DNA of 64,000 nt from Patescibacteria group bacterium (GCA_034520665.1 JAXHNJ010000001.1:2579-66578); one strand, 5' to 3'. Positions 6,306 to 49,897 are shown, counted from the stretch's first letter. The notes: generated by a model not told the origin, from the sequence alone. Translations and numbers: made by a program.

Positions 6306-6926
6306 TTAAAGCAATGAATCAATAATATCTTTGAGTTCCTCCTCTTCAATTAACTCAGTTATTTCATAATTATTTACAAAGAAATGAGGCGTGCCCTGAA
6401 CACCTAAACTTGTTCCTTCCTCTATATCTTTCTGAATTAAAGCTAGGGTTTCATTATTATTAACACATTGAATAAATTCATCAGTGTCCAAATCTAAGCC
6501 AGAAGCTAAGGGTACATATAAGTCATCAGTTAGTTTTTTTTGGTTTTGAAAAAGTAGATCGTGCATCTGCCAAAATTTATCCTGCTTCTGAGCGCAACGG
6601 GCCGCCTTAGCCGCGTTTAAAGATTGATCATGAATTTGATGAAGCGGAAAATCCTTCCAGACAATAGCTATCTCTCCTTCATATTCATCATTTAAATTAC
6701 GAAAAATATCGGCCAACTCTCTGCAATAAGGACACTGAAAATCCCCATATTGAATTATTACCACTTCATTACTTTTTTTCCCTATAATGGGGTTTTCTGA
6801 TTTAATTTTCGGAAAACTTGAACCAGTTTTATCATTAAAAAAAGACAAAACCGAATAAGCAAATAGAATAACTATTAATACAGCTAATACTATTAAAGCA
6901 TTTAGGCCTAGCTTTTTTTTATCCAT
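6306..6926 (-). CDS. DsbA-like thiol:disulfide oxidoreductase (membrane-anchored thioredoxin fold, CPYC active site); intact copy
   Basis: N-terminal TM helix. CxxC motif FQCPYCRE with a thioredoxin-fold context. 206 aa. The copy on the other arm is frameshifted. Confidence 0.8.
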   Translation of the reverse strand: MDKKKLGLNALIVLAVLIVILFAYSVLSFFNDKTGSSFPKIKSENPIIGKKSNEVVIIQYGDFQCPYCRELADIFRNLNDEYEGEIAIVWKDFPLHQIHDQSLNAAKAARCAQKQDKFWQMHDLLFQNQKKLTDDLYVPLASGLDLDTDEFIQCVNNNETLALIQKDIEEGTSLGVQGTPHFFVNNYEITELIEEEELKDIIDSLL

Positions 6927-6929: not shown

Positions 6930-8186
6930 TTATTTCAGTCTTATTTTATAAACTCGTCCTGTATTTTTATCGGTAAAATAAATATATTCTTCATTATTGG
7001 AAAGATAAACATTCTGGGCCGTATAGTTACCAAATCCGGAAGAATTTACCGGTCTAGCTAATAATTCTTTTGAACCTGTTTCCAGATTAATTTTATAAAA
7101 ATCATCAGGTACATTATTAGCTAATTCCGGATAAATGTCACTGCCACTGGGCAGAAATTCAGGTACGGCGCAGTAAATATAATTATTATCGCCAAAAACA
7201 CATTTATCAGGCCAGGTCTGTATGTTTAAATCAACTTGACTGGCTCCTATATTTTCCATAGTGCCGTCCATTATATGAAGACTGGGGTTATAATTTGATT
7301 CTTTGTCAAAAACACTGTATAAAATAGTATTGCCTGTCGGTGACCATTTTGATTTAAAACCCCTTCCGGATACATCAACAGAGGGGAAATTTTCATTATT
7401 AGCCCCTAAAAAAATTATTTCCTGCTCTTCAGTACTGGTTGATTTGTTATAAGTAGCAATAACCTGATTATTAGGAGCCCAATTTACAGTTACTTGATTA
7501 GCATATTGCCCCAAGTCTTCCACCAATCTGGCTGAAGTGCCTTCAGGGTCAGAAACAGCTAAATAATTATCTCCTTCCTGCTCGCCCTGATACTTATAAG
7601 CTAATTTACCTGATGACGGAGAAAAAGAAAATTCATATGTTTCTTTAGGTAAACTGTACTGCTTTTTTAGGTTAAAATCGTAAGTTATTTTGGATCGGTC
7701 AGGAAAAGTAATAACAGCTTTATCACGTGAAGGAGACCAGTAAATATCTTCGGCTCCGGGATATTTATCGTCAGTTAATTTTGTTTTAGTGGTGCCATCC
7801 GGCGAAGTTTTAATAAATTCTCCAGTTAATTCATCATAATAAATCAAATCCTTTTTATTGGTATCTATTACAGCTGACTTGGTTAAGTCTTCGGTAATCT
7901 TACTAACCTCGGTAATCCCGCCGGAAGCTACCTGGGAGGGCGGTTCGGGCTGAGCTGTACCATTAATATTAGGCAAAGCTTCGTTAACATTTAAATTATC
8001 ATTAATATTGCCTGTGGGGCGATTAACCGCGTTAATATTAGGTAAAATGCCGTTGACATTATAATTATCATTATCATTAGTATCTATTATTGGCGAAAAT
8101 AAGATACGGTAAATTAAATAGCCAAAAAAAACGGCTACGGCTATAAAGCCGATAATGAGTAAAATTCTTTTTAATTTTGGGTTCAT
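6930..8186 (-). CDS. Membrane-anchored PD40/TolB-like beta-propeller repeat protein
   Basis: N-terminal TM, an N-rich linker, then repeated Y/W-rich blade-like segments (YWSPSRDKAVITF, SFSPSSGKLAY, VNWAPNNQVIATY, KWSPTGNTILYSV). Confidence 0.5.
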   Translation of the reverse strand: MNPKLKRILLIIGFIAVAVFFGYLIYRILFSPIIDTNDNDNYNVNGILPNINAVNRPTGNINDNLNVNEALPNINGTAQPEPPSQVASGGITEVSKITEDLTKSAVIDTNKKDLIYYDELTGEFIKTSPDGTTKTKLTDDKYPGAEDIYWSPSRDKAVITFPDRSKITYDFNLKKQYSLPKETYEFSFSPSSGKLAYKYQGEQEGDNYLAVSDPEGTSARLVEDLGQYANQVTVNWAPNNQVIATYNKSTSTEEQEIIFLGANNENFPSVDVSGRGFKSKWSPTGNTILYSVFDKESNYNPSLHIMDGTMENIGASQVDLNIQTWPDKCVFGDNNYIYCAVPEFLPSGSDIYPELANNVPDDFYKINLETGSKELLARPVNSSGFGNYTAQNVYLSNNEEYIYFTDKNTGRVYKIRLK

Positions 8187-8341: not shown

Positions 8342-9616
8342 TTAATGAAGATAAGTTTGAGCACAACAAATATGATCAGCTGGACAAAAACATTCATTAT
8401 TATCAATACAAGCAAGATCCTCGCCGCCACCTTGGTATTTCATATCATTAAATTCCGGGCTATTATAGGTGTCACAGTCTACCTCAATTTCATTTTTACT
8501 ATCACATTTCCCAGGATCCCGACAATCAATTTCTGTTTTTAAGGCTTTCATACAACAAATAGTGTCAGCTTCTACGTTAGCCCGGGAATCACTGCTACAA
8601 AAAATTTTGCTAGGAGCTATGAGATATCTTGGTTCATTATTATCAGAGTCCCAACATTGGGTACCGCCACGTTCACAATCTATTCTTATATCAGTAACTT
8701 CTTCACAGACTTTTTCAGTCAACTCATCTTGTAAAAGATTAACTTCAAATATTCCATTACTACTAGTACCACGTATTTTTGCAAAACGGCAGTCCATATT
8801 CCCAAAACCCTTATTAATTCTACGGCAGCTTGATTTTATTTCTGGATTTTTAGCAATAACAGCATCCACTTCTTGGCATTTTTCATCATCAGCTTCATCG
8901 CATAAATCCTTGGGGTCAAAACAATTTAAAGGACAATCCTTTTTAGAAGTAACGTCATTGGCGCAAATTTTTGGTTCTCCGGATTTAGTTTCTACAGTCG
9001 GATCACATTCACTACCACAACAATATGATTCACCATAAGCTGCTTTATCCTGGGCACTTTTAGGAATATCATATCTTGTACCACAAGCAAAATATGGGTA
9101 ACTATCTATTGATTCTTTATCCGGGAAATCTTTGCAATAAAAAGTATCTAAAACATTTTTTGATATATTAGACAAGGGCAAAAGTTTAAAGCGGACCAAG
9201 GCTGGGTTAATAGTATTAAGTAAAACAAAAGCCCCTAAGGTTAAAACCAGACCCATTAAAGCGCCGTTTAAAGTGGCTTTGGCTTTTTCTATTTTGGTGG
9301 CATTGCCGCTGGCAGTAATCCACTGGAAACCAGCAAAGACAATCATGACAGCGGCAAAGATACCGGCCGCTCGAGCAAACCATTGGTAAAACTGTATAAT
9401 ATAATCGCCAAAGTTATTGACACAATAATCACAGGTAGAGGTATTACAATCGGGATCACATTTTTTGGTTAAGCCGGGAATTTGTAAATTTACTTTAATC
9501 TGTTTTTCACCCACTTCTGTATCACTTCCTTCTTCCTGAGCTAAAACTTGCCCTGAATAAAATAACAAAACGGAAAAAATTGATAGGATTAAGATTATTT
9601 TAGCTATTTTTTTCAT
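8342..9616 (-). CDS. Cys-rich secreted/membrane protein, paralog B. It has a signal peptide, a conserved two-TM-helix module (possibly TrbC/VirB2-like pilin; uncertain) and a divergent Cys-rich C-terminal domain with about 30 Cys.
   Basis: Signal peptide ending AQEEG. A module FYQWFARAAGIFAAVMIVFAGFQWITASGNATKIEKAKATLNGALMGLVLTLGAFVLL that is near-identical at nucleotide level to paralog A. The C-terminal ~220 aa is dominated by Cys. Confidence 0.6.
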   Translation of the reverse strand: MKKIAKIILILSIFSVLLFYSGQVLAQEEGSDTEVGEKQIKVNLQIPGLTKKCDPDCNTSTCDYCVNNFGDYIIQFYQWFARAAGIFAAVMIVFAGFQWITASGNATKIEKAKATLNGALMGLVLTLGAFVLLNTINPALVRFKLLPLSNISKNVLDTFYCKDFPDKESIDSYPYFACGTRYDIPKSAQDKAAYGESYCCGSECDPTVETKSGEPKICANDVTSKKDCPLNCFDPKDLCDEADDEKCQEVDAVIAKNPEIKSSCRRINKGFGNMDCRFAKIRGTSSNGIFEVNLLQDELTEKVCEEVTDIRIDCERGGTQCWDSDNNEPRYLIAPSKIFCSSDSRANVEADTICCMKALKTEIDCRDPGKCDSKNEIEVDCDTYNSPEFNDMKYQGGGEDLACIDNNECFCPADHICCAQTYLH

Positions 9617-9796
9617 CTTATTATTTAATTAGGAAAAATATTATTTTCATTTTTAACATATAAGTTAACATCCATACAGCAATGTCCATTAGGCACAATA
9701 CTGCAATCAGTAGCACTGGCAGATGCACTTGATCCACAAGGATTTTCTCCACATAAAGCCGATAATGAGTAAAATTCTTTTTAATTTTGGGTTCAT
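9617..9796 (-). pseudogene. Gene remnants: 42-nt copy of the first 14 codons of the 418-aa propeller gene (MNPKLKRILLIIGF) fused to a decayed Cys-rich C-terminal tail (..ENPCGSSASASATDCSIVPNGHCCMDVN..)
   Basis: 9755..9796 is identical to 8145..8186. Downstream, an alternative frame reads a Cys-rich tail resembling paralog C-termini. Confidence 0.5.
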
Positions 9797-9818
9797 ATTA
9801 ATAATATTTACTTATATT

Positions 9819-11045
9819 TTAATTTTTCCACAATAAATTAGTGCGCATCCAACAATTTGAACTACAATTTTCAGTAGTGTTGTCGTAATAGGTACCTGAC
9901 ATACTATTATAACTTTCTCCATTGTCTAAAATATCACTATCACAATCTATCTGTATAATATCTTTTTCTTCCCAAACATCTCCCATACTCGAGTAAGGTT
10001 TTTCTTCTTGGCAAAATATATTTTCTTTAGGAAATAGAGCGCAACACCATTTATCAATATCTCCTACTCTTTCATCATTTGTACAATAATCCCTTGGCTC
10101 ATCTTTATCCCAACAAGCTGTTTCTACTTCTCCAGAATATTCTCCTTTAAAACTACAATTTATTCTTTTCCAATTTCCTTCACAAGGATTTTCTACTATT
10201 TCAACATAAGCACAGGAGTCAAAGGAAAGACCGGGTCTATCCTTACTACATTTATAATCAGTTATTTTATTTTTTTCCAATATGTCGTCAATTTTATAAC
10301 ACTCATCTTTATTAGCTTCCTCACATAATTTTTGTGGGTCAAAACAATTTAAAGGACAATCTTCACCCACCATAGTTACATCATTAGCACAAATTTGTGG
10401 GTTACCCTCCTCATCAACATCACTACAGACACTACCACAACAATAAGATTCACCATAACCCACTTCATCCTGGACACTTTTAGGAATATCATAACTTGTA
10501 CCACAAGCAAAATGTGGGTAATTATCTATTGATTCTTTATCCGGGAAATCTTTGCAATAAAAAGTATCTAAAACATTTTTTGATATATTAGACAAGGGCA
10601 AAAGTTTAAAGCGGACCAAGGCCGGGTTAATAGTATTAAGTAAAACAAAAGCCCCTAAGGTTAAAACCAGACCGATTAAAGCGCCGTTTAAAGTGGCTTT
10701 GGCTTTTTCTATTTTGGTGGCATTGCCGCTGGCAGTAATCCACTGGAAACCAGCAAAGACAATCATGACAGCGGCAAAGATACCGGCCGCTCGAGCAAAC
10801 CATTGGTAAAACTGTATAATATATTCGCCAAAGTTATTGACACAGTAACTACCAGCAAATTTTCCGTTTTCATCACAGGGTTTAGTCAATTTTGGTATTT
10901 TCAAATTTACTGGTATTTCCTTTTCTCCGGTTTCATTACTACCCTCTTCTTGAGCTAAAGTATTATAAAAAGGAAAGAGTAAAAAAAGTAATACTGTTAA
11001 AACTAAAGTTAATTTAGTTAATATTTTTATATTTTTATTTATCAT
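9819..11045 (-). CDS. Cys-rich secreted/membrane protein, paralog A (408-aa model). The ORF track extends it to 11180 because of an indel that fuses the upstream gene's tail.
   Basis: Identical to 13545..14771(+) from the MINKNIK start. It has the same conserved N-terminal module as paralog B and a different Cys-rich C-terminus. Confidence 0.55.
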   Translation of the reverse strand: MINKNIKILTKLTLVLTVLLFLLFPFYNTLAQEEGSNETGEKEIPVNLKIPKLTKPCDENGKFAGSYCVNNFGEYIIQFYQWFARAAGIFAAVMIVFAGFQWITASGNATKIEKAKATLNGALIGLVLTLGAFVLLNTINPALVRFKLLPLSNISKNVLDTFYCKDFPDKESIDNYPHFACGTSYDIPKSVQDEVGYGESYCCGSVCSDVDEEGNPQICANDVTMVGEDCPLNCFDPQKLCEEANKDECYKIDDILEKNKITDYKCSKDRPGLSFDSCAYVEIVENPCEGNWKRINCSFKGEYSGEVETACWDKDEPRDYCTNDERVGDIDKWCCALFPKENIFCQEEKPYSSMGDVWEEKDIIQIDCDSDILDNGESYNSMSGTYYDNTTENCSSNCWMRTNLLWKN

Positions 11046-11601
11046 ATTATAATTTAATAAATAGGACTTAAAAATTGCCTTTAAAGCCTCAAAAGTTTCT
11101 TTATCCAAAAAATTTGTAATCTCGCTAGGATTTTCATAAATATAATGTCCTAAAATAATCAGAAAAATAATTACTGCCAAACCAAGCCAAATATACCAGG
11201 TAGCCAGAAAAAAACTGACGATAGCCCCGAGAATTGGTATTATTATTCTTTGAATGAGTATTTTTAAAAACTTTTTAGCTGCTTTTTTAACTACTTTTTT
11301 GACTTTTTCTCTTAACCTCCTCTTTGGCTATTTTTCTTACTCTTTCTAATTTTCTTCTTCTTTGTCTTTCCTCATCTTCTTCTTCCTCCTTTTTTGTATC
11401 TTCCTGATTAAAATCTAATCCATCTTTTTCAGAGGATGAATTTCTATATTCTTCTGGAGTTTCCCCATCATCCGCTTGGGTTTCAGGAATTTCACGTAAA
11501 TTTTCTTGATTAATGTTTCTTTCATTAAAACGTTTTTCTTTTAACTCTCTTTCAATTTCCCTATCTTTATTTTCACTTTTTTTTTCATCTAATTCTTTCA
11601 T
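11046..11601 (-). pseudogene. K/E-rich small membrane protein, frameshifted copy (intact 182-aa version at 12988..13536)
   Basis: The N-terminal 104 codons are in one frame. The C-terminal TM part (WLGLAVIIFLIILGHYIY..) is shifted and read as an N-terminal extension of paralog A. Indels relative to the other arm were seen directly. Confidence 0.5.
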
Positions 11602-12240: not shown

Positions 12241-12350
12241 TAACCTAAACCTTGGCTGTCTTTACTAACACTTTATACCTCTGATAGCTTTCGGCGGTAA
12301 GCTATCAGAGGTATAAAGTGTTAGTAAAGACAGCCAAGGTTTAGGTTAAT
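12241..12350. repeat. Symmetry junction of the inverted duplication: arms meet at 12291..12298 with an 8-nt asymmetric spacer (tcggcggt)
   Basis: Perfect reverse-complement symmetry on both sides (..ctgatagctt|tcggcggt|aagctatcag..). Confidence 0.9.
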
Positions 12351-12389
12351 TAAAATATAAATATATGAAAAAATTATCTATTTATCATT

Positions 12390-12977
12390 ATGGTAGCCGT
12401 TATAATTATTTTAGGAGGTCTGGCCTTTGTATTTTTTTATTGGTATGAGGGTAATGGCAATGTGAATGACGACAATCTTAATCAAGCAAATACTAATTTT
12501 GCTTTAAATTTAAATCAGAATCAAAATCTAAATCTTTCGGTTAATACAAATGCGAATAATAATACTAATTCGGCTATTGATAAAAGTAAAGAAAAAAATG
12601 AAATAATAGGAATGGCCCATACTTTTGCTGAACGTTTCGGCAGTTATTCAAACAAAAATGATTTTGAAAATTTAGAAAACCTTAAATCATGGATGACTTC
12701 TAGCTACCAAAAAGATATAGATAGCTATATTGAAGAACAAGAGAAAATTAGATCTGAAGACGATGATTATAAAGCTATGGTGAGTAAAGTAATTTCTAAT
12801 AAAATAACTAATTTTTCCGACGAAAGCGCTAGAGTAGAGTTATTAACTGAAAGAACTGAAGAAGATCTAACAGATACTCTGGATAATTATTATCAGAAAT
12901 TAGTTTTAGAGTTAAAAAAAATTGATAATACATGGAAAATTAATGCTGCTTCCTGGGGTGAAAAGAGTGATCTATAA
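12390..12977 (+). CDS. Hypothetical membrane-anchored protein with N-rich linker (195 aa), right-arm copy
   Basis: Identical protein to 11612..12199(-). Confidence 0.5.
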   Translation: MVAVIIILGGLAFVFFYWYEGNGNVNDDNLNQANTNFALNLNQNQNLNLSVNTNANNNTNSAIDKSKEKNEIIGMAHTFAERFGSYSNKNDFENLENLKSWMTSSYQKDIDSYIEEQEKIRSEDDDYKAMVSKVISNKITNFSDESARVELLTERTEEDLTDTLDNYYQKLVLELKKIDNTWKINAASWGEKSDL

Positions 12978-12987
12978 AATATAAGTT

Positions 12988-13536
12988 ATGAAAGAATTAG
13001 ACATGAAAAAAAAGAGTGAAAATAAAGATAGGGAAATTGAAAGAGAGTTAAAAGAAAAACGTTTTAATGAAAGAAACATTAATCAAGAAAATTTACGTGA
13101 AATTCCTGAAACCCAAGCGGATGATGGGGAAACTCCAGAAGAATATAGAAATTCATCCTCTGAAAAAGATGGATTAGATTTTAATCAGGAAGATACAAAA
13201 AAGGAGGAAGAAGAAGATGAGGAAAGACAAAGAAGAAGAAAATTAGAAAGAGTAAGAAAAATAGCCAAAGAGGAGGTTAAGAAAAAAGTCAAAAAAGTAG
13301 TTAAAAAAGCAGCTAAAAAGTTTTTAAAAATACTCATTCAAAGAATAATAATACCAATTCTCGGGGCTATCGTCAGTTTTTTTCTGGCTACCTGGTATAT
13401 TTGGCTTGGTTTGGCAGTAATTATTTTTCTGATTATTTTAGGACATTATATTTATGAAAATCCTAGCGAGATTACAAATTTTTTGGATAAAGAAACTTTT
13501 GAGGCTTTAAAGGCAATTTTTAAGTCCTATTTTTAA
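12988..13536 (+). CDS. K/E-rich protein with C-terminal TM helix (182 aa), intact copy
   Basis: Highly charged N-terminal region, a KK-rich segment, then a hydrophobic C-terminal helix. Confidence 0.45.
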   Translation: MKELDMKKKSENKDREIERELKEKRFNERNINQENLREIPETQADDGETPEEYRNSSSEKDGLDFNQEDTKKEEEEDEERQRRRKLERVRKIAKEEVKKKVKKVVKKAAKKFLKILIQRIIIPILGAIVSFFLATWYIWLGLAVIIFLIILGHYIYENPSEITNFLDKETFEALKAIFKSYF

Positions 13537-13544: not shown

Positions 13545-14771
13545 ATGATAAATAAAAATATAAAAATATTAACTAAATTAACTTTAGTTTTAACAGTATT
13601 ACTTTTTTTACTCTTTCCTTTTTATAATACTTTAGCTCAAGAAGAGGGTAGTAATGAAACCGGAGAAAAGGAAATACCAGTAAATTTGAAAATACCAAAA
13701 TTGACTAAACCCTGTGATGAAAACGGAAAATTTGCTGGTAGTTACTGTGTCAATAACTTTGGCGAATATATTATACAGTTTTACCAATGGTTTGCTCGAG
13801 CGGCCGGTATCTTTGCCGCTGTCATGATTGTCTTTGCTGGTTTCCAGTGGATTACTGCCAGCGGCAATGCCACCAAAATAGAAAAAGCCAAAGCCACTTT
13901 AAACGGCGCTTTAATCGGTCTGGTTTTAACCTTAGGGGCTTTTGTTTTACTTAATACTATTAACCCGGCCTTGGTCCGCTTTAAACTTTTGCCCTTGTCT
14001 AATATATCAAAAAATGTTTTAGATACTTTTTATTGCAAAGATTTCCCGGATAAAGAATCAATAGATAATTACCCACATTTTGCTTGTGGTACAAGTTATG
14101 ATATTCCTAAAAGTGTCCAGGATGAAGTGGGTTATGGTGAATCTTATTGTTGTGGTAGTGTCTGTAGTGATGTTGATGAGGAGGGTAACCCACAAATTTG
14201 TGCTAATGATGTAACTATGGTGGGTGAAGATTGTCCTTTAAATTGTTTTGACCCACAAAAATTATGTGAGGAAGCTAATAAAGATGAGTGTTATAAAATT
14301 GACGACATATTGGAAAAAAATAAAATAACTGATTATAAATGTAGTAAGGATAGACCCGGTCTTTCCTTTGACTCCTGTGCTTATGTTGAAATAGTAGAAA
14401 ATCCTTGTGAAGGAAATTGGAAAAGAATAAATTGTAGTTTTAAAGGAGAATATTCTGGAGAAGTAGAAACAGCTTGTTGGGATAAAGATGAGCCAAGGGA
14501 TTATTGTACAAATGATGAAAGAGTAGGAGATATTGATAAATGGTGTTGCGCTCTATTTCCTAAAGAAAATATATTTTGCCAAGAAGAAAAACCTTACTCG
14601 AGTATGGGAGATGTTTGGGAAGAAAAAGATATTATACAGATAGATTGTGATAGTGATATTTTAGACAATGGAGAAAGTTATAATAGTATGTCAGGTACCT
14701 ATTACGACAACACTACTGAAAATTGTAGTTCAAATTGTTGGATGCGCACTAATTTATTGTGGAAAAATTAA
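13545..14771 (+). CDS. Cys-rich secreted/membrane protein, paralog A (right-arm copy)
   Basis: Signal peptide, conserved two-helix module and a Cys-rich C-terminal domain. Forms a tandem pair with 14974..16248. Confidence 0.6.
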   Translation: MINKNIKILTKLTLVLTVLLFLLFPFYNTLAQEEGSNETGEKEIPVNLKIPKLTKPCDENGKFAGSYCVNNFGEYIIQFYQWFARAAGIFAAVMIVFAGFQWITASGNATKIEKAKATLNGALIGLVLTLGAFVLLNTINPALVRFKLLPLSNISKNVLDTFYCKDFPDKESIDNYPHFACGTSYDIPKSVQDEVGYGESYCCGSVCSDVDEEGNPQICANDVTMVGEDCPLNCFDPQKLCEEANKDECYKIDDILEKNKITDYKCSKDRPGLSFDSCAYVEIVENPCEGNWKRINCSFKGEYSGEVETACWDKDEPRDYCTNDERVGDIDKWCCALFPKENIFCQEEKPYSSMGDVWEEKDIIQIDCDSDILDNGESYNSMSGTYYDNTTENCSSNCWMRTNLLWKN

Positions 14772-14793: not shown

Positions 14794-14973
14794 ATGAACC
14801 CAAAATTAAAAAGAATTTTACTCATTATCGGCTTTATGTGGAGAAAATCCTTGTGGATCAAGTGCATCTGCCAGTGCTACTGATTGCAGTATTGTGCCTA
14901 ATGGACATTGCTGTATGGATGTTAACTTATATGTTAAAAATGAAAATAATATTTTTCCTAATTAAATAATAAG
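14794..14973 (+). pseudogene. Gene remnants (propeller-gene start fragment + decayed Cys-rich tail), right-arm copy
   Basis: Mirror of 9617..9796. Confidence 0.5.
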
Positions 14974-16248
14974 ATGAAAAAAATAGCTAAAATAATCTTA
15001 ATCCTATCAATTTTTTCCGTTTTGTTATTTTATTCAGGGCAAGTTTTAGCTCAGGAAGAAGGAAGTGATACAGAAGTGGGTGAAAAACAGATTAAAGTAA
15101 ATTTACAAATTCCCGGCTTAACCAAAAAATGTGATCCCGATTGTAATACCTCTACCTGTGATTATTGTGTCAATAACTTTGGCGATTATATTATACAGTT
15201 TTACCAATGGTTTGCTCGAGCGGCCGGTATCTTTGCCGCTGTCATGATTGTCTTTGCTGGTTTCCAGTGGATTACTGCCAGCGGCAATGCCACCAAAATA
15301 GAAAAAGCCAAAGCCACTTTAAACGGCGCTTTAATGGGTCTGGTTTTAACCTTAGGGGCTTTTGTTTTACTTAATACTATTAACCCAGCCTTGGTCCGCT
15401 TTAAACTTTTGCCCTTGTCTAATATATCAAAAAATGTTTTAGATACTTTTTATTGCAAAGATTTCCCGGATAAAGAATCAATAGATAGTTACCCATATTT
15501 TGCTTGTGGTACAAGATATGATATTCCTAAAAGTGCCCAGGATAAAGCAGCTTATGGTGAATCATATTGTTGTGGTAGTGAATGTGATCCGACTGTAGAA
15601 ACTAAATCCGGAGAACCAAAAATTTGCGCCAATGACGTTACTTCTAAAAAGGATTGTCCTTTAAATTGTTTTGACCCCAAGGATTTATGCGATGAAGCTG
15701 ATGATGAAAAATGCCAAGAAGTGGATGCTGTTATTGCTAAAAATCCAGAAATAAAATCAAGCTGCCGTAGAATTAATAAGGGTTTTGGGAATATGGACTG
15801 CCGTTTTGCAAAAATACGTGGTACTAGTAGTAATGGAATATTTGAAGTTAATCTTTTACAAGATGAGTTGACTGAAAAAGTCTGTGAAGAAGTTACTGAT
15901 ATAAGAATAGATTGTGAACGTGGCGGTACCCAATGTTGGGACTCTGATAATAATGAACCAAGATATCTCATAGCTCCTAGCAAAATTTTTTGTAGCAGTG
16001 ATTCCCGGGCTAACGTAGAAGCTGACACTATTTGTTGTATGAAAGCCTTAAAAACAGAAATTGATTGTCGGGATCCTGGGAAATGTGATAGTAAAAATGA
16101 AATTGAGGTAGACTGTGACACCTATAATAGCCCGGAATTTAATGATATGAAATACCAAGGTGGCGGCGAGGATCTTGCTTGTATTGATAATAATGAATGT
16201 TTTTGTCCAGCTGATCATATTTGTTGTGCTCAAACTTATCTTCATTAA
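14974..16248 (+). CDS. Cys-rich secreted/membrane protein, paralog B (right-arm copy)
   Basis: Identical protein to 8342..9616(-). Confidence 0.6.
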   Translation: MKKIAKIILILSIFSVLLFYSGQVLAQEEGSDTEVGEKQIKVNLQIPGLTKKCDPDCNTSTCDYCVNNFGDYIIQFYQWFARAAGIFAAVMIVFAGFQWITASGNATKIEKAKATLNGALMGLVLTLGAFVLLNTINPALVRFKLLPLSNISKNVLDTFYCKDFPDKESIDSYPYFACGTRYDIPKSAQDKAAYGESYCCGSECDPTVETKSGEPKICANDVTSKKDCPLNCFDPKDLCDEADDEKCQEVDAVIAKNPEIKSSCRRINKGFGNMDCRFAKIRGTSSNGIFEVNLLQDELTEKVCEEVTDIRIDCERGGTQCWDSDNNEPRYLIAPSKIFCSSDSRANVEADTICCMKALKTEIDCRDPGKCDSKNEIEVDCDTYNSPEFNDMKYQGGGEDLACIDNNECFCPADHICCAQTYLH

Positions 16249-16403: not shown

Positions 16404-17660
16404 ATGAACCCAAAATTAAAAAGAATTTTACTCATTATCGGCTTTATAGCCGTAGCCGTTTTTTTTGGCTATTTAATTTACCGTATCTTATTTTCGCCAA
16501 TAATAGATACTAATGATAATGATAATTATAATGTCAACGGCATTTTACCTAATATTAACGCGGTTAATCGCCCCACAGGCAATATTAATGATAATTTAAA
16601 TGTTAACGAAGCTTTGCCTAATATTAATGGTACAGCTCAGCCCGAACCGCCCTCCCAGGTAGCTTCCGGCGGGATTACCGAGGTTAGTAAGATTACCGAA
16701 GACTTAACCAAGTCAGCTGTAATAGATACCAATAAAAAGGATTTGATTTATTATGATGAATTAACTGGAGAATTTATTAAAACTTCGCCGGATGGCACCA
16801 CTAAAACAAAATTAACTGACGATAAATATCCCGGAGCCGAAGATATTTACTGGTCTCCTTCACGTGATAAAGCTGTTATTACTTTTCCTGACCGATCCAA
16901 AATAACTTACGATTTTAACCTAAAAAAGCAGTACAGTTTACCTAAAGAAACATATGAATTTTCTTTTTCTCCGTCATCAGGTAAATTAGCTTATAAGTAT
17001 CAGGGCGAGCAGGAAGGAGATAATTATTTAGCTGTTTCTGACCCTGAAGGCACTTCAGCCAGATTGGTGGAAGACTTGGGGCAATATGCTAATCAAGTAA
17101 CTGTAAATTGGGCTCCTAATAATCAGGTTATTGCTACTTATAACAAATCAACCAGTACTGAAGAGCAGGAAATAATTTTTTTAGGGGCTAATAATGAAAA
17201 TTTCCCCTCTGTTGATGTATCCGGAAGGGGTTTTAAATCAAAATGGTCACCGACAGGCAATACTATTTTATACAGTGTTTTTGACAAAGAATCAAATTAT
17301 AACCCCAGTCTTCATATAATGGACGGCACTATGGAAAATATAGGAGCCAGTCAAGTTGATTTAAACATACAGACCTGGCCTGATAAATGTGTTTTTGGCG
17401 ATAATAATTATATTTACTGCGCCGTACCTGAATTTCTGCCCAGTGGCAGTGACATTTATCCGGAATTAGCTAATAATGTACCTGATGATTTTTATAAAAT
17501 TAATCTGGAAACAGGTTCAAAAGAATTATTAGCTAGACCGGTAAATTCTTCCGGATTTGGTAACTATACGGCCCAGAATGTTTATCTTTCCAATAATGAA
17601 GAATATATTTATTTTACCGATAAAAATACAGGACGAGTTTATAAAATAAGACTGAAATAA
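16404..17660 (+). CDS. Membrane-anchored PD40/TolB-like beta-propeller repeat protein (right-arm copy)
   Basis: Identical protein to 6930..8186(-). Confidence 0.5.
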   Translation: MNPKLKRILLIIGFIAVAVFFGYLIYRILFSPIIDTNDNDNYNVNGILPNINAVNRPTGNINDNLNVNEALPNINGTAQPEPPSQVASGGITEVSKITEDLTKSAVIDTNKKDLIYYDELTGEFIKTSPDGTTKTKLTDDKYPGAEDIYWSPSRDKAVITFPDRSKITYDFNLKKQYSLPKETYEFSFSPSSGKLAYKYQGEQEGDNYLAVSDPEGTSARLVEDLGQYANQVTVNWAPNNQVIATYNKSTSTEEQEIIFLGANNENFPSVDVSGRGFKSKWSPTGNTILYSVFDKESNYNPSLHIMDGTMENIGASQVDLNIQTWPDKCVFGDNNYIYCAVPEFLPSGSDIYPELANNVPDDFYKINLETGSKELLARPVNSSGFGNYTAQNVYLSNNEEYIYFTDKNTGRVYKIRLK

Positions 17661-17663: not shown

Positions 17664-18282
17664 ATGGATAAAAAAAAGCTAGGCCTAAATGCTTTAATAG
17701 TATTAGCTGTATTAATAGTTATTCTATTTGCTTATTCGGTTTTGTCTTTTTTAATGATAAAACTGGTTCAAGTTTTCCGAAAATTAAATCAGAAAACCCC
17801 ATTATAGGGAAAAAAGTAATGAAGTGGTAATAATTCAATATGGGGATTTTCAGTGTCCTTATTGCAGAGAGTTGGCCGATATTTTTCGTAATTTAAATGA
17901 TGAATATGAAGGAGAGATAGCTATTGTCTGGAAGGATTTTCCGCTTCATCAAATTCATGATCAATCTTTAAACGCGGCTAAGGCGGCCCGTTGCGCTCAG
18001 AAGCAGGATAAATTTTGGCAGATGCACGATCTACTTTTTCAAAACCAAAAAAAACTAACTGATGACTTATATGTACCCTTAGCTTCTGGCTTAGATTTGG
18101 ACACTGATGAATTTATTCAATGTGTTAATAATAATGAAACCCTAGCTTTAATTCAGAAAGATATAGAGGAAGGAACAAGTTTAGGTGTTCAGGGCACGCC
18201 TCATTTCTTTGTAAATAATTATGAAATAACTGAGTTAATTGAAGAGGAGGAACTCAAAGATATTATTGATTCATTGCTTTAA
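17664..18282 (+). pseudogene. DsbA-like thiol:disulfide oxidoreductase, frameshifted copy (homopolymer indels vs left arm)
   Basis: The ATG at 17664 reads MDKKKLGLNALIVLAVLIVILFAYSVLSF, then the frame is lost. The CPYC-containing part survives as the ORF 17824..18282. T6 vs T7 and A6 vs A7 run differences relative to the left arm. Confidence 0.6.
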
Positions 18283-23010: not shown

Positions 23011-26000
23011 CTAGATCAACTGAATTAACTTTTCTAACTTTTTATTTTTTGTCTGCTGATATACTTTTTCCATTTGGTCTTTTTCTACTTCGTTGTATCC
23101 AAAACTTGAAGCTAATTGAATATCAATGTCGTCCTTTAATAATTTATTTAATTCATCTTCGTCAGTTAAATTAACAAGTAATTTATATTTATCCATCTCT
23201 AACTCCGACATTCCCATTTGCTGAACAACCTGATGCTGAAAACCGTCTCGTTCAAATAGCCCTCTATAGTGATGATATATTTTTTGATATTTTTCAAATT
23301 GTTCGGTTTTTGATTTAAGGAAGCTTTTATCAGCTATTATTTCTTTACCTTCTTTTTGTTTTAATAACTCTGAACTAATTAAAATAGTCAATATCATTGC
23401 AGCGGTTGTGGCAATTTTGACAATTGGCGATTTGGTCTTCTCTTTCAACCATTCAAACATAGCATAAACATTTTCTGGTTTTTTGAATAATACTTCTTGC
23501 TCTGCCTTTTCTTCAAAAGTCGTAAACTCAGTCTGGACAACTTCTTGTAATGCCTCTTGAATTTTAGGCAAATAATTATCAATTTCTTCTTTTTTGTTAT
23601 CAATACTAAATGAAGCTCTGATTACCCCGTTTCCGTGCCATTGCAAATCTTTTTTCTGAATTTTTGTTCGGTCTATATAAGACAGGTAAATGCCTTTATC
23701 AGCTAACTTTTGTGCAAACTCTTTATTATCAACTCCTGAAACACTAAAAGAATAAATAAATGATGTTCCTCCTTCAACTTCGTACAAAGTTAAACCTTCC
23801 TGTTCAGCAATTTGATGAATTTTATCTCTAAAATAATCTTTAAGTTCTTGGCGTTCTTGTGTTACCTTTTCAAAATTTCCATTTTCGTAGCCTTTCTCCT
23901 CTAAAGTCTGGATAGCATTATTAAAGCCAAAAGCGTCAACACAATCAATCTCATCTTCAATATCTGTATTCGGATGTATCTCTAGTTTATCATCAAACAT
24001 GTACTTCAAAATAACCTGCTCATCCTGCCAGTGTAATTTATTTAATTTGAACAAATTCTTTTTAACTTTAGGGCTATCAGGATTAAAATATCCTAATCCT
24101 AATGGGGTGCTGGCCATTGTTTTATGAGGAGTGCCAAAATATGCGTCGCAACCTATGTCATCAAACTTTACTTCTGAAACATTGCCTAATGCCTGTGCCC
24201 CATCAATCATTACAAAAATATCTGGGTCTTTAGGATTAAGTTCTTGTTTTTTCTTTCTCACAAATTCAATAATATCTTTTACTGGCAATTCAATACCTGT
24301 ATCACGAATAACCTGACTAATAACAAAACATTTTGTATCTGGAGTTAAACCGTTTTCTATATTTTTATAGATTGTTTTTAAATCTTTATTAACAACATCA
24401 ATTATATCTGTCTTAATTCCTGTTAACTCATCAACTATTTTACCGTATTTTTTACCCCTCTTCTTGTAAAAGGTTGGGTAAGCTGACCAAGGGTCTTTAC
24501 CTTCAGGGTTGCCGTGGTCAATGTTAGCTTCAAACAACCTAACAATTGATTTGTTTTCAGCGTTTGATAATAGAACTTTATCGCCTTTTTTAAGTCCTAC
24601 CAACCAAGAAACTAATTTCATTGCCTCGGTTGTATTTCTGCCAAAAACAACTGCTTCTGGTTTAACCCCCACCAATTCAGCTGCTTTTTCTCTCGCTTGT
24701 TCAAATAATTGTTCTTTTTGATTTTCAGACACATCTTTTGCCTCTGCTAACATCTTTTCAATTTCTTTTGGTCTGTTGGTAATAGAAGCGTGGTTTAAGT
24801 GTAGCGCTTCTCTTTCTCCATCAAGATATTCTTGATAATAATCCCAATTAAAATAAAAATCTTCTTCAAATTCCTGCCTATATTTTTCAAGATGTTGTTG
24901 AATTTCTTGGCTGTCAAATTCTACTCCTATCAAGCCCTTACCTAATTTTTTACGAGCATAAGCATATATCTCATTTACTTTCGGGATATTTAAATTAGAC
25001 AGATGATGAGCCGACTCAAAACGAGGATGTCTTTTAAGTTTTTGGCTAAAATCTGGAAGCACTCCCTTTTTGGACAACTCCAACCACTCTTGTGTTCCTG
25101 GATAGGCAGTATTTATATTTATACCAACAGAATTTTTAGATATTAAACCTTGAGATTTTAACTCTGAAATATAATCAATAGTCTGCTGATAGCTTCCTAT
25201 ACCTTCTAATCCGAACTGAAGAGAAACCCCTACTTTTATGCCAGCCTCTTTGCACCAATCCAATACATTTTCAACTTTTTCTAATTTAATTTTTTTACCA
25301 CCTTTAGATATAGCTTCTTCTAATTGTTCAAAGCCAAAATAAATATAGGAACAACCCGATTCTTTCATCTTATCAATAAATTCTTTATTTGGAATATCAA
25401 TAAAAGTTGTTTGACAGCCCCATTCAAAAGAAGCTTCTTCTTTTTGTAAATCAATTATCCCATCCAATAATTTTTCTGTTCTTTTTGGTTTTTGAGTAAA
25501 AGTCGAGTCATCAAAAAATACTGCTTCGTATCCATAATCTTTAATTAGAATTTCAATTTCTTTTAATGCTCGCTCTGGAGTTGGTCTGTCTTTACATAAT
25601 TTGTAAAGTGATGGTTGTTTATCTTTATTTGACAAGAGTGACTCCATACAAAAACTGCAAGCGTATTTACACATTATTTGGGTCATAACTTGAGCTGTTT
25701 TTTTATCACCAAAAACAGGAAACTTATTTTCTGTGGTCAATCTACCTCTAAACATAAAAGGCAATTTATTCCAGTCAACTGGGTTGCCTGACAAAGAAAT
25801 TGAATTAACTTTGTCTTTCTTATCTTTGACAAAGATATTGCCAGACCCTTCCACATTTTGAAAAATATCTTTATTTTTTATTATTTCGTCAATTATTTCC
25901 TGATTTTTTTTATCTGTATTATTAGCAATAAACTTAAAAATTTCTGTCAGGGCATATTGCCCGTCGCCAGCAACTAAAATATCAATTAACTCTTTTTCCT

Positions 26001-26832
26001 GCTCCTTGCTTAAAGTTGATTGTTTTTCAAGTGTCTTTTTTTGTTCATCTGTTAAACCAAGTTTTTCTCTAATACTTGGGTTAAAATACGCTTCGTGATT
26101 TGTCCCATCTTCATGAGAACCGCCCAAAATAACCAATGTGTCTGGGGAGTATTGCTTAACAATTTTAGCCAGCTCAATAGCAAAATAATGACCTTCGGAA
26201 GTGTTGCTTATCCCAACCGCTCTTGGTTTTTTGTCTTTTATTTCTTCAACAAAATTTTTAACAAATTCATCACTATACTCAGCGGGATTTTGCATTGATA
26301 AAATTTCAGGACTTTTCTCTGCTGGGAAAGTATCAGTTCTGACATATCTGTCCAAAACAGAAGTTGCATACATTAAAGGAGTTGGTTCGCCTGGGAATGT
26401 TCCGCTAACACCTTCTGAAATATGCGGGGCACTAACAAACATTACTGAAAAATGTTTCAGCTTATATTTCTCGTCTTCAAGTGCTTCAACAAATTTTTCG
26501 TGGCTTGTAAATTTCATATCTTTCAAATTTTGTTTAGCCTGTTTTTCTATTTTCAAATCCCGCTCCTTCAAAAAACTAATATATTCATTCGTATTAAATT
26601 CTTGTTCAGGACTGAAATAGTAAGCCTTACCTGTCTCTTTTTCAATTTTCTTTTCTGTATCAGTTAAATCTTCTGAAACCTTTTTCTCTTGACCTTCCCT
26701 AATCACTTCCAAATCAGCGCCTTCCTGTAAGGTGTCAGCAAGGCCTTTATTCTTTAAAGTTTTTGCCCTCTTTTCTAAGTTAATGGCTTCTTCGTGAAGA
26801 CTGTTTATATTATTTTCCTTTCTCTTAATCAT
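23011..26832 (-). CDS. Multidomain fusion: coiled-coil N-terminus + B12-binding domain + radical SAM core + class-V aminotransferase/cysteine-desulfurase-like PLP domain + C-terminal extension
   Basis: Rossmann-like B12-binding stretch RAVGISNTSEGHYFAIELAKIVKQYSPDTLVILGGSH. Radical-SAM CxxxCxxC (MCKYACSFCME). PLP-fold region with GTPHKTMASTPLG (Lys-PLP) and FVMIDGAQALG. 1273 aa. Confidence 0.7.
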   Translation of the reverse strand: MIKRKENNINSLHEEAINLEKRAKTLKNKGLADTLQEGADLEVIREGQEKKVSEDLTDTEKKIEKETGKAYYFSPEQEFNTNEYISFLKERDLKIEKQAKQNLKDMKFTSHEKFVEALEDEKYKLKHFSVMFVSAPHISEGVSGTFPGEPTPLMYATSVLDRYVRTDTFPAEKSPEILSMQNPAEYSDEFVKNFVEEIKDKKPRAVGISNTSEGHYFAIELAKIVKQYSPDTLVILGGSHEDGTNHEAYFNPSIREKLGLTDEQKKTLEKQSTLSKEQEKELIDILVAGDGQYALTEIFKFIANNTDKKNQEIIDEIIKNKDIFQNVEGSGNIFVKDKKDKVNSISLSGNPVDWNKLPFMFRGRLTTENKFPVFGDKKTAQVMTQIMCKYACSFCMESLLSNKDKQPSLYKLCKDRPTPERALKEIEILIKDYGYEAVFFDDSTFTQKPKRTEKLLDGIIDLQKEEASFEWGCQTTFIDIPNKEFIDKMKESGCSYIYFGFEQLEEAISKGGKKIKLEKVENVLDWCKEAGIKVGVSLQFGLEGIGSYQQTIDYISELKSQGLISKNSVGININTAYPGTQEWLELSKKGVLPDFSQKLKRHPRFESAHHLSNLNIPKVNEIYAYARKKLGKGLIGVEFDSQEIQQHLEKYRQEFEEDFYFNWDYYQEYLDGEREALHLNHASITNRPKEIEKMLAEAKDVSENQKEQLFEQAREKAAELVGVKPEAVVFGRNTTEAMKLVSWLVGLKKGDKVLLSNAENKSIVRLFEANIDHGNPEGKDPWSAYPTFYKKRGKKYGKIVDELTGIKTDIIDVVNKDLKTIYKNIENGLTPDTKCFVISQVIRDTGIELPVKDIIEFVRKKKQELNPKDPDIFVMIDGAQALGNVSEVKFDDIGCDAYFGTPHKTMASTPLGLGYFNPDSPKVKKNLFKLNKLHWQDEQVILKYMFDDKLEIHPNTDIEDEIDCVDAFGFNNAIQTLEEKGYENGNFEKVTQERQELKDYFRDKIHQIAEQEGLTLYEVEGGTSFIYSFSVSGVDNKEFAQKLADKGIYLSYIDRTKIQKKDLQWHGNGVIRASFSIDNKKEEIDNYLPKIQEALQEVVQTEFTTFEEKAEQEVLFKKPENVYAMFEWLKEKTKSPIVKIATTAAMILTILISSELLKQKEGKEIIADKSFLKSKTEQFEKYQKIYHHYRGLFERDGFQHQVVQQMGMSELEMDKYKLLVNLTDEDELNKLLKDDIDIQLASSFGYNEVEKDQMEKVYQQTKNKKLEKLIQLI

Positions 26833-26918: not shown

Positions 26919-27113
26919 TTAATAAAAAGTGGGGTTTCTTAGCCCGCTTTCAAGGCTACTACTGATATACCCTCTGTCCATATTTAAAGCACGAGAAATA
27001 TTCCCTTGAGATGTTCCCTTTTTAGTCCGAATTTCCTTTAAATTTTTACCTAATTTTTTAGATAAATCGTCCATAATATCAATGATATTATATAACTTAT
27101 TAAATTTATTCAA
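26919..27113 (-). CDS. XRE-family helix-turn-helix transcriptional regulator (short, possibly truncated)
   Basis: LGKNLKEIRTKKGTSQGNISRALNMDRGYISSLESGLRNP matches the Cro/C1 HTH pattern. Confidence 0.55.
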   Translation of the reverse strand: MNKFNKLYNIIDIMDDLSKKLGKNLKEIRTKKGTSQGNISRALNMDRGYISSSLESGLRNPTFY

Positions 27114-27335
27114 CTCTCATGGCCGGTAAGGTTTTGTAGACAAACTTAATCCTTATGTTCTTTAAATCTTTTGTTTAGGTTAGTTGAATAACCTACATAT
27201 CTTTGCTTAGGATATTTTATACTTTTTAGATAATAAACGTAATATAAGATATTTTTTTTGGCGACCAGAATCATAAAACTTTGTTTCGGTTCTGGTCTGC
27301 CACGAACCGAAAAATTCTTTTCTGGTTCGTGGCGG
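27112..27335. repeat. Direct repeat copy 1 (~225 bp) flanking tRNA-Ser(UGA)
   Basis: Near-identical to 27560..27788. Contains hairpins CCACGAACC/GGTTCGTGG, GACCAGAA/TTCTGGTC and AGGTTA/TAACCT. Confidence 0.85.
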
Positions 27336-27419: not shown

Positions 27420-27559
27420 GGGTTATTTTTATCGTGCGTCTCTCTTTATTTTAAAGTATTTCTTAACATCAATTTTAAGGCTTTTCTTCCCTTGCTTGTT
27501 TTTAGGTATTTTTCTTGTCTTTTTGCATCAGCTTTATTTTTAAAAACCTCATAAAAAAT

Positions 27560-27788
27560 CAACTCTCATGGCCGGTAAGGCTTTGTAGATAAACTTAATC
27601 CTTGATTATGTTCTTTAAATCTTTTGTTTAGGTTAGTTGAATAACCTACATATCTTTGCTTAGGATATTTTATACTTTTTAGATAATAAACGTAATATAA
27701 CATATTTTTTTTGGCGACCAGAATCATAAAACTTTGTTTCGGTTCTGGTCTGCCACGAACCGAAAAATTCTTTTCTGGTTTGTGGCGG
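27560..27788. repeat. Direct repeat copy 2 flanking tRNA-Ser(GCU)
   Basis: Same sequence as 27112..27335 with a 7-nt insertion and two substitutions. Confidence 0.85.
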
Positions 27789-32694: not shown

Positions 32695-33054
32695 TTAATT
32701 ATTACGTAATTTTTTAGTAAATCCAATTAATTGCTTGCCTAGCTCTTCAGCTAATAAAATGTAATCTTGGTGTTCATTTTTTGAAATATATTTTTCATCT
32801 AAAGCTATATCTAAACAGGCGATCACTTCTTCTAGTGAACTGGATGAATTTATTAAAAAACGGCCAAAATCTTTATCTGACATTCTGTTTGAGCCCTCGG
32901 CGATATTTAAGAGAATAGAATTAGCGGCTCTTTTAATTTGAGAAGTCAAATTGTATATTTCTTCTTTGGGAAACTTATTTGCTAAGAGATATACAGCTTT
33001 TCTAAAACGGCGGGCGTCTTTATAAACAGGAAATTTTCTAAAACGAAACAACAT
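32695..33054 (-). CDS. Four-helix-bundle protein (23S rRNA intervening-sequence protein family)
   Basis: Characteristic EEIYNLTSQIKRAANSILLNIAEGSNR...LEEV pattern. ~119 aa. Confidence 0.7.
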   Translation of the reverse strand: MLFRFRKFPVYKDARRFRKAVYLLANKFPKEEIYNLTSQIKRAANSILLNIAEGSNRMSDKDFGRFLINSSSSLEEVIACLDIALDEKYISKNEHQDYILLAEELGKQLIGFTKKLRNN

Positions 33055-42699: not shown

Positions 42700-42707
42700 C
42701 AAAAAAA

Positions 42708-44219: not shown

Positions 44220-44222
44220 ATT

Positions 44223-44906
44223 ATGAAAATAAATTTTTCAAAAATTGTAAACCTGATGCGGAGTCTGTTTTTAAGGTATTTTAAAATATTAGCCATTGTT
44301 TTAGCTGTTTTGATTTTAGTTCTCGGATTTTTATTTATCGTTAAACCAAAATGGAATGAAGTTAAGGAAACAGGAATATTTGACCTTAATGCTGAAAAAG
44401 AAAAAAAGGAAGACAATGAACTGTATTTATCTAGATTGAAAGAATCTTTGGATAAATTTAAAGAGATAAATCAGAAAGATATTGATTCTTTAAGTCAGAT
44501 AATACCAAGTAAAAAAGAAATTCCCGAGCTTTTTATAATTTTAGAGGATTTAGTGAGTCATTCAGCTTTGAGTCTGGATTCTATAACTTTTTCTGAAGGC
44601 AGTGTCTTGAGTCAAGAAAATGATTCTTTAAGTGATAACCTTGATGAATTACCGGCGGCGCAAGCCAAGGTTATTAAAAATACCTCAGTGAGTAAAAATA
44701 TTAATATACTTAATATTTCTTTGAGTATCAGCGGTGGACGTAATTATAATGATTTAAAGACTCTTCTTAATGATATTGAAGAAGAACAGAGAATAATGGA
44801 TATTTCAAGTTTAAGTTTTAATCCGCAAAGTCAGAGTAGTATTGATGCCGGCATGAATTTTGGTTTGAATTTAAAAACTTATTATATAGAGAGAGATAAT
44901 GATTAA
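44223..44906 (+). CDS. PilO-like type IV pilus assembly protein
   Basis: N-terminal TM plus coiled coil. Positioned after the PilN-like gene. Confidence 0.5.
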   Translation: MKINFSKIVNLMRSLFLRYFKILAIVLAVLILVLGFLFIVKPKWNEVKETGIFDLNAEKEKKEDNELYLSRLKESLDKFKEINQKDIDSLSQIIPSKKEIPELFIILEDLVSHSALSLDSITFSEGSVLSQENDSLSDNLDELPAAQAKVIKNTSVSKNINILNISLSISGGRNYNDLKTLLNDIEEEQRIMDISSLSFNPQSQSSIDAGMNFGLNLKTYYIERDND

Positions 44907-44912
44907 AATAAT

Positions 44913-45203: not shown

Positions 45204-45206
45204 ATT

Positions 45207-46982: not shown

Positions 46983-47003
46983 ATACTATTAATTTATAAA
47001 TAT

Positions 47004-47399: not shown

Positions 47400-47400
47400 T

Positions 47401-48474: not shown

Positions 48475-48482
48475 GATAAATT

Positions 48483-49691: not shown

Positions 49692-49747
49692 ATAAGCCTT
49701 ATTATGCTATAATTTAGGGGCAGATAAGGATAAAAAAGTTTTTAAAC

Positions 49748-49776: not shown

Positions 49777-49897
49777 ATAAGTAGTCGAGATATAAAGATA
49801 AACAATAATTTTCAGAATTTTCATAATTTGTTGTCAGGCTAGTCGATTACTGATAACAAAAAGAAAACTGAAAAACAAAAAGAAGGGAGGTGACAAA

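Follow-up and report, generated by a model that had tools for sequence, protein, structure and literature searches.

How can two neighbouring proteins be almost identical, down to the nucleotide sequence of their genes, over one part of their length and clearly different over the rest, and what could such proteins do? The question is raised by two adjacent genes, here called A and B, in a 64,000-nt stretch of DNA (the window) from an ultra-small bacterium of the Patescibacteria (CPR) group. Both encode cysteine-rich proteins in which a helical hairpin precedes a large C-terminal domain, referred to below as the head. Comparison of the sequences strongly supports gene conversion as the process that homogenised the hairpin block of A and B. 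As to their function, we propose, with a probability of about 0.6, that A and B represent an extended form of VirB2-like pilin, present as tandem paralogs and encoded in a chromosomal MPF_FATA-like type IV secretion system (T4SS) operon, and that they are T4SS-associated proteins with a variable head contacting the host or the cell envelope.

Genes A and B and the block they share

The region 8342-11180 contains two adjacent open reading frames (ORFs) on the minus strand, B (8342-9616, 424 aa) and then A (9819-11180, the true ORF being 9819-11045), separated by a spacer of 202 nt. These ORF calls confirm the pair of 408 and 424 aa described in an earlier reading made from the window alone (the sequence-only reading). 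The genes are found again on the plus strand at 13545-14771 (A, 408 aa; MDZ7797994.1 / MDZ7797999.1 in NCBI) and 14974-16248 (B, 424 aa, with the architecture of A; MDZ7797993.1 / MDZ7798000.1), and NCBI names both of them 'pilin'. The mirrored copies are not additional paralogs, and that possibility was ruled out. Self-BLAST showed that the whole of 1-24587 is a single foldback palindrome. Its arms measure at least 12.29 kb and meet at an 8-nt centre (12291-12298); they are 99.93% identical, with 4 mismatches and 12 gap openings between them. The mirrored coordinates are therefore the same two genes counted twice, once on each arm.

The shared block occupies positions 13743-14126 of the plus strand in A (residues 67-194; left-arm mirror 10464-10847) and its partner positions 15163-15546, also on the plus strand, in B (left-arm mirror 9044-9427). 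A sliding comparison showed it to be sharply bounded, with 375 of 384 nt (98%) identical, and its core (A residues 75-174) contains two differences in 300 nt. Near-identity of about 120 residues down to the nucleotides, as seen in the sequence-only reading, is thus borne out. At residues that are identical in A and B the same codon is used in 119 of 121 cases in the block, compared with 65 of 108 in the flanks (Fisher p = 1.8e-14). Synonymous divergence (dS) between the two genes amounts to 0.025 within the block, whereas the flanks reach 1.05-2.0.

Purifying selection alone was ruled out as the cause of the block. Inside it the single-copy orthologue P0001 is only 79% identical to A at the nucleotide level (67% same-codon use), compared with 98% between A and B, and constraint at the protein level therefore cannot explain the A-B identity. 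Outside the block the tails of the three proteins are roughly equidistant, with identities of 42% for A and B, 44% for A and P0001 and 34% for B and P0001. Apart from a 384-nt tract over the pilin hairpin, A and B differ from each other as much as orthologues of separate species do. Bootstrap analysis placed A and B as sisters in 1000 of 1000 replicates for the block, and the tail placed A with P0001 in 68%. These discordant tree histories indicate that a conversion tract was laid over an old duplication. Together with the dS contrast and the codon test they sustain the earlier suggestion that the module has undergone concerted evolution.

The data come from an error-prone long-read metagenome-assembled genome (MAG), and the near-identical block, the tandem pair, or both, might be artefacts of assembly or polishing. 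In favour of this explanation, the same contig carries the 24.6-kb foldback and many homopolymer indels, and the locus is present on two contigs of the MAG. However, the second of these contigs (698,002 bp) repeats B (421 aa, 99% identical) beside two frameshift fragments of A, whose sequences are identical to the window copies, including the A-specific I124 as opposed to the B-specific M. As the tandem pair is also present there, it was not itself produced by the foldback. Besides, the edges of the block are graded, nine real differences lie inside it, unique flanks anchor long reads that span 384 nt, and A and B are both intact ORFs with all conserved cysteines kept. We consider an artefactual origin of the block or the pair to be extremely improbable.

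The spacer between the two genes retains a trace of how the pair arose. Just after the stop codon of A, positions 14794-14837 of the plus strand (ATGAACCCAAAATTAAAAAG...) are identical over all 44 nt to the 5′ end of the gene for a beta-propeller-like protein, and this copy is the footprint of the rearrangement that made the tandem pair. Next to it, at 14838-14966 on the plus strand, lies a frame (...DCSIVPNGHCCMDVNLYVKNE..., running to a stop codon) that may be the 3′ remnant of a third Cys-rich tail, as it matches the last 24 positions of the family hidden Markov model (HMM) with 3.5 bits. The match is weak, and the spacer frame is suggestive of a scar of the pair-making rearrangement, possibly of a lost third copy. 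A scan of the locus for promoters and terminators gave nothing above the shuffled background.

The pilin module and its cysteine-rich head

Protein A begins with a predicted signal peptide (residues ~1-32) and a short Cys-containing N-region. These are followed by a T4SS_pilin hairpin (72-104 and 109-139), the motif LNTINPALV, a linker (146-173) and the Cys-rich head (~180-406). In both A and B the hydrophobic N-terminus ends in LAQ/EE, where the slash marks the predicted cleavage, in agreement with the signal peptides proposed previously. Hydropathy analysis of A detected hydrophobic segments at 5-32, 82-107 and 117-144, and a basic K-rich loop, ASGNATKIEKAKATLNG, joins the two helices. An AlphaFold2 model built from a 33-sequence alignment (mean predicted local distance difference test score, pLDDT, 80.7) also shows the helical hairpin; in it the linker is of low confidence and the head, with a pLDDT of ~90, is a compact alpha/beta structure. 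The structure prediction suggested in the sequence-only reading has thus been carried out, and it agrees with the hydropathy data on the two hydrophobic helices separated by a short polar loop that this reading had described.

An acidic region of ~40 residues after the leader contains two cysteines in A and four in B, and the tails contain 22 and 26, respectively. Whole-protein totals are 24 for A and 30 for B, and the previous figure of about 30 in each has to be corrected. The head is acidic, with 54 D+E residues against 23 K+R. An outward-facing head fits this acidity as well as the positions of the hydrophobic segments and of the K-rich loop.

An HMM search of the module against Pfam identified T4SS_pilin (PF18895), a family that is already catalogued. 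The score was 29.9 bits for A (cutoff 26.6) and 26.0 bits for B, and no other Pfam family was found. All 33 members of the tail family described below match PF18895 at E ≤ 0.01, with a best value of 3.2e-13. A profile of the module retrieved 447 proteins. The 120 top-scoring ones are all stand-alone pilins, 76-151 aa long and with identities of up to 51%; the matches listed were short proteins only and are unsuited to a length census. About a dozen of the best 120 also carry PF04956 (TrbC/VirB2). The stand-alone pilins stop ~10 residues past LNTINPxLV, which is exactly where the extension of A and B starts. A has the layout of a T4SS_pilin protein, with a leader whose cleavage is predicted, two hydrophobic helices and a short basic loop, and at 408 and 424 aa neither A nor B is a small stand-alone member of that family (~100-150 aa). 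On the strength of these matches, membership of the module in T4SS_pilin is supported.

The position of the extension brings up the possibility that A and B are pro-forms. In that case a cut after LNTINPxLV or within the linker would set the head free as a secreted, disulfide-rich effector or toxin, and what stayed behind would be an ordinary pilin. Canonical VirB2/TrbC pilins do undergo C-terminal processing, and the low-confidence linker (146-173) begins past the end of the stand-alone pilins. But the operon has no conserved gene for a protease, the linker itself contains the first invariant cysteine (C164), and the searches revealed no similarity to any toxin family. Processing of this kind is, in our view, very unlikely.

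Comparison with known pilins shows both how close and how far the relationship is. With the stand-alone PF18895 pilins, A and B share the same Pfam match, a signal peptide, a hairpin ending in LNTINPxLV and up to 51% identity to pilins of 120 aa. They differ from them in being three times longer, with a Cys-rich head of ~230 aa plus a linker, and in having a co-conserved DsbA and beta-propeller. The Mbov_0395 family (NCBIfam NF045849, pilin-like conjugal transfer proteins of integrative and conjugative elements of Mycoplasma) gave a near-full-length alignment of the module with positions 7-76 of the 80-residue profile (E ~1e-6), and both occur in monoderm T4SS contexts with a VirB4 of the CD1110/Mbov_0397 type. 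However, the score of 26-27 bits is sub-threshold, well under the cutoff of 40, and the NF045849 proteins are small and headless.

The TrbC/VirB2 pilins (PF04956; F TraA, T-pilus VirB2, RP4 TrbC) resemble A and B in the leader (predicted to be cleaved here), the two membrane helices, the short basic loop and the association with a VirB4 machine, and several close homologues of the module match both PF18895 and PF04956. These pilins belong to diderms, whereas the host of A and B is monoderm; a large C-terminal domain is not known in their family, and there is no direct match. The likeness to TrbC/VirB2-type pilins noted in the sequence-only reading therefore stands as far as a VirB2-like T4SS_pilin is concerned (PF18895, in an operon beside virB4), and falls where a direct match to PF04956, the PDB or VirB2 is concerned.

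A profile made from the tail only was run against 1.84 billion cluster representatives and found 33 proteins at E ≤ 1e-3 (clusters at 50% identity). All of them are 338-467 aa long, have the tail at the C-terminus and carry PF18895; none has a Pfam match on the tail. Twenty tail cysteines are kept in at least 29 of the 33. A and B themselves align by BLASTP over 398 residues with 55% identity (E 8e-137). Unrelated heads on A and B are ruled out by this result, by the family alignment and by the conserved cysteines, and the tails, described before as unrelated and completely diverged, are two members of one family, 42% identical and with shared conserved cysteines.

Searches for relatives of the head outside this family were negative. 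No match to the tails was found in Pfam at E ≤ 10, a sequence profile search of the PDB with the tail gave nothing at E ≤ 10, and Foldseek comparison of the head model with the PDB gave nothing at E ≤ 0.001. For residues ~160-408, neither Pfam nor the PDB yielded a sequence or fold match to known Cys-rich, adhesin or toxin families, so the check for known toxin or adhesin folds, suggested in the sequence-only reading, came out negative. The head is, judging from these searches, a rare and uncatalogued, predicted disulfide-rich domain that occurs only on this pilin module. Because the family is rare (33 clusters at 50% identity), its reach may be one lineage only. A new surface-display family, as envisaged earlier, is not what was found. 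The module is catalogued (PF18895) and tandem pilin arrays have been published (PMC12102498); only the Cys-rich head and its operon partners appear undescribed.

Operon context and proposed role

Scans of contig collections gave three loci in genome contigs and one in metagenome contigs. Of the related loci, L001 is a JGI contig and L002 is Patescibacteria MAG contig JBDRMK010000017.1. In L001, L002, L008/L009 and L010 the gene order is a protein of ~490-560 aa, PrgI (VirB3-like), a TrsD/TraC-like protein, VirB4, two small membrane proteins, the Cys-rich pilin, a membrane-anchored beta-propeller protein and DsbA. The Cys-rich pilin is single-copy in all of these loci and is located two genes downstream of virB4 in L001, L002 and L008. 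VirB4 of the related loci belongs to the CD1110 family (NF045971, 362.6 bits against a cutoff of 325). The short contigs L006 and L007, from ENA sample ERZ25083882, contain the same genes, but only those immediately flanking the pilin.

The window conforms to this order. Two small membrane-protein genes (12390-13536, plus strand; 195 aa and 182 aa, the second DUF2207_C-like), which sit between virB4 and the pilin in every related locus, precede A. After B comes the gene for the beta-propeller-like protein (16404-17660, plus strand, with a minus-strand copy at 6930-8186; U5L76_00085), which is 418 aa long and has an N-terminal anchor and a weak PD40/beta-propeller match. A DsbA-family thiol-disulfide oxidoreductase (206 aa), which is anchored at its N-terminus and has the motif CPYC, is encoded at 6306-6926 on the minus strand, its right-arm copy being at 17824-18282 on the plus strand. 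In the relatives the beta-propeller protein (~416 aa) is always encoded by the next gene after the Cys-rich pilin, and DsbA always by the second. Beyond DsbA, L002 and L008/L009 have a second pilin-module protein fused to M15/VanY and then RadA, with RecG on the other strand. The window keeps these genes from the virB4 remnant to RecG, but the pilin is duplicated and the M15 fusion is absent.

VirB2-like pilins, PF18895 matches and tandem arrays of 2-11 pilin genes near virB4 have been described in Patescibacteria (Quinonero-Coronel et al. 2025, PMC12102498). A and B, as at least two adjacent pilin genes near virB4, form such a tandem array, and it is repeated on the second MAG contig. They also agree with the published arrays in being paralogs in an MPF_FATA-like operon with no relaxase or type IV coupling protein in view. 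The difference lies in the tract with 98% nucleotide identity: the published arrays average 25% amino acid identity, with a maximum of 54% (PMC12102498).

Alternatively, A and B could be the major pilins of a T4SS pilus, so that every subunit would bear a Cys-rich head and the paralogs would be phase or antigenic variants of the whole fibre. Such a head, of ~26 kDa, would be hard to fit into a VirB2-type helical lattice, and the fusions of the module to M15, 3D and SLT domains (see below) resemble anchored enzymes and not fibre subunits. What speaks for major pilins is that the related operons showed no gene for a small T4SS_pilin without a head, their only PF18895 matches being the Cys-rich and M15 fusions, and that the fusion point is exactly where stand-alone pilins end; an unannotated 108-aa ORF in L008, however, is a possible divergent pilin. 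On balance we regard this alternative as unlikely.

The same module was found with other heads. M15/VanY heads are present in P0007 and P0008 and in the fusions at L002 13170-14384 and L008 13196-14410. Weaker assignments are 3D in P0010, just under the cutoff, and SLT in P0019, and heads of unknown type occur on the module in proteins of 500-666 aa. The M15/VanY fusions resemble A and B in the module (44-51% identical), in the order of module and then extracytoplasmic head, and in belonging to the same operon, two genes further downstream. Their head is a recognisable enzyme, whereas the Cys-rich head is of no recognisable catalytic family. The VirB1 hydrolase is missing from most Patescibacteria T4SS loci, and pilin fusions to peptidoglycan-active domains may stand in for it.

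Heads vary between strains as well. Between L006 and L007 nucleotide identity is 88% over the gene upstream of the pilin and the initial ~450 nt of the pilin gene itself, and 100% over the first 55 nt of the beta-propeller gene region; the tails in between have no nucleotide similarity. Of the corresponding proteins from ERZ25083882, P0005 has the family head and P0006 is a much more divergent form of 359 aa. By sequence, the co-occurring L006 and L007 strains show allelic head replacement. The notion of a constant anchor with swappable heads, put forward in the sequence-only reading, consequently holds for the wider family and for L006/L007, but not for A and B, the heads of which belong to one domain family.

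Head variation is also the point at which a more static explanation can be judged. The hairpin might be a mere anchor and the protein a fixed envelope accessory (a scaffold, a wall-binding partner of the beta-propeller protein, or a VirB8/VirB1 substitute) without any host recognition, the differences between heads being neutral drift. Sister architectures with peptidoglycan-active domains (M15/VanY; weakly 3D and SLT), the strictly conserved order with the beta-propeller and DsbA, and a tail ratio of nonsynonymous to synonymous substitutions (dN/dS) below 1 speak for this. Against it stand the non-alignable heads between near-identical flanks in two co-occurring strains and the retention, in this genome, of a divergent duplicate with the module alone homogenised; these two observations fit selection for head diversity better than drift. 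A fixed accessory therefore seems to us rather unlikely.

The reading that we prefer, a T4SS-associated pilin with a variable head, can be formulated as a handle-and-head model. Once the protein had been exported by Sec and its signal peptide cleaved, the hairpin would be embedded in the membrane and its K-rich loop would be cytoplasmic, as expected from the positive-inside rule. The acidic head would be outside, and the neighbouring DsbA would form ~10 disulfides there. The T4SS would recognise the hairpin, as with VirB2-type pilins, and use it as a handle, either to keep the protein at the machine or to pull it into a pilus as a minor or tip subunit, and the head would be the variable element contacting the host or the cell envelope. 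Conversion would keep the handle compatible with a single machine, while duplication and allelic replacement would diversify the head. The model is testable, and the sister fusions to cell-wall hydrolases support it.

A number of observations weigh against this model. B scores 0.6 bits under the PF18895 cutoff. There was no match of A or B to PF04956 at E ≤ 0.1, the module profile found no pilin chain in the PDB at E ≤ 10, and hhalign of the module with A. tumefaciens VirB2 gave a probability of 1%. As far as these comparisons go, the tie to canonical TrbC/VirB2 is only transitive, via homologues with both Pfam matches. The T4SS genes upstream of the virB4 end are missing from the window, because of the foldback. 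From the literature consulted, no Patescibacteria pilin is known to polymerise into a pilus (PMC12857230). Judging from F- and T-pilus geometry, a VirB2-type filament could probably not accommodate 230-aa heads on all of its subunits. The searches gave no Pfam, PDB-sequence or PDB-fold relative of the head, and its binding role is putative. Finally, the overall tail dN/dS of ~0.4, with dS saturated, gives no direct sign of positive selection.

An analogy can be drawn with Neisseria pilE/pilS and with the VirB2 paralogs of Bartonella and Anaplasma (PMC12102498), which likewise combine a constant N-terminal assembly module, a variable surface C-terminus and recombination between copies. The Neisseria system differs in that type IV pili and T4SS pilins are unrelated superfamilies and in that the A-B tract homogenises the constant part and does not import cassettes. 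Here, in addition, just two copies look expressed, and no bank of silent cassettes was seen.

The T4SS and its pilin array are essential in Ca. Southlakia epibionticum ML1, a cultivated Saccharibacterium (Wang et al. 2023, PMC10633639; PMC12857230), and the T4SS and pilin genes are essential for the epibiotic life of the one genetically tractable Patescibacterium, in a role that is unexplained (PMC10633639, PMC11665869). Adhesins of any kind have yet to be found for these systems (PMC12102498), and no PrgB-type adhesin has been found in Patescibacteria (PMC10633639, PMC12102498, PMC12857230). A pilin that is encoded in the operon, carries a variable outer domain rich in predicted disulfides and has a DsbA and a beta-propeller protein as partners offers a definite candidate for the component in contact with the host. 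Pilins extended at the C-terminus, a Cys-rich head on them, fusions of pilins to hydrolases and a partner DsbA are mentioned in none of the open-access papers that the search covered. A wider generalisation is possible, and we put it forward tentatively and with some doubt. The VirB2-like hairpin may be a general T4SS handle in Patescibacteria for interchangeable extracellular heads at the host interface (disulfide-knotted binding domain, M15, lytic-transglycosylase-like and others), and the Cys-rich head, oxidised by a dedicated DsbA and partnered by the beta-propeller, may be the host-specificity determinant that diversifies by allele swapping and duplication, with gene conversion preserving the fit of the handle to the machine. 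If true, this would be a modular display system for pilin-borne adhesins and enzymes, undescribed for any T4SS.

The foldback and other features of the window

The palindrome opens the deposited MAG contig (455,760 bp, NCBI locus tags U5L76_), and at this position it is most likely a long-read chimera or an assembly artefact. Gap openings between its arms are mostly differences in homopolymer length. In the public annotation ~17 genes are doubled, every arm gene having two accession numbers, and virB4 is shortened. The 3′-end remnant of virB4 (12299-12349, plus strand) starts directly at the fold point and ends in ..SVSKDSQGLG before the stop codon, compared with ..LSRDSEGLG in VirB4 of L001. 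This position of the virB4 C-terminus indicates that the otherwise conserved gene was cut to ~10 codons by the palindrome, and the spacing of the next gene is as in the relatives. Much of the apparent complexity in the sequence-only reading came from this foldback.

Indels account for several irregular ORFs in the arms. In the left arm a 1-nt indel joins the ORF of A to the gene upstream of it, so that the ORF reads on to a TTG at 11180 and would encode 453 aa. Uncorrected indel errors were located at 12366-12392, 13282, 13532, 17746 and 17809. The 195-aa gene, the real start of which is MKKLSIY (12366), is frameshifted in both arms, the 182-aa gene is shortened to 104 aa in the left arm by an indel, and DsbA is cut to 152 aa in the right arm by a homopolymer indel.

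The rest of the window is ordinary chromosome, with genes for a ClpB-type AAA+ ATPase, an M48 peptidase, LemA, LigA, a GatA-type amidase and TruB. Positions 41599-55032 comprise a complete locus for type IV pili, which encodes PilM, PilO, a PilB-like ATPase, a response regulator, PilT-like and PilC proteins, a prepilin peptidase (52322-53092) and at least three pilins with the N-methyl motif. Just upstream of it, 34301-37879 and 37974-41522 encode adjacent proteins of ~1190 aa with faint Pfam similarities (purple acid phosphatase N-terminal, BNR/YCF48-like); they are possibly large surface proteins. A 119-aa protein matching the 23S rRNA intervening-sequence protein family is encoded at 32695-33054. 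Its bAvd-like match is below the cutoff and its neighbourhood showed no reverse transcriptase; evidence for diversification by a diversity-generating retroelement is therefore lacking.

An ORF of 1273 aa at 23011-26832 combines B12-binding, radical SAM and class-V aminotransferase domains, and the foldback ends inside it, at 24587. A direct repeat of ~226 nt (96.5%), at 27110-27335 and 27559-27788, overlaps the ends of two different tRNA-Ser genes (anticodons TGA and GCT).

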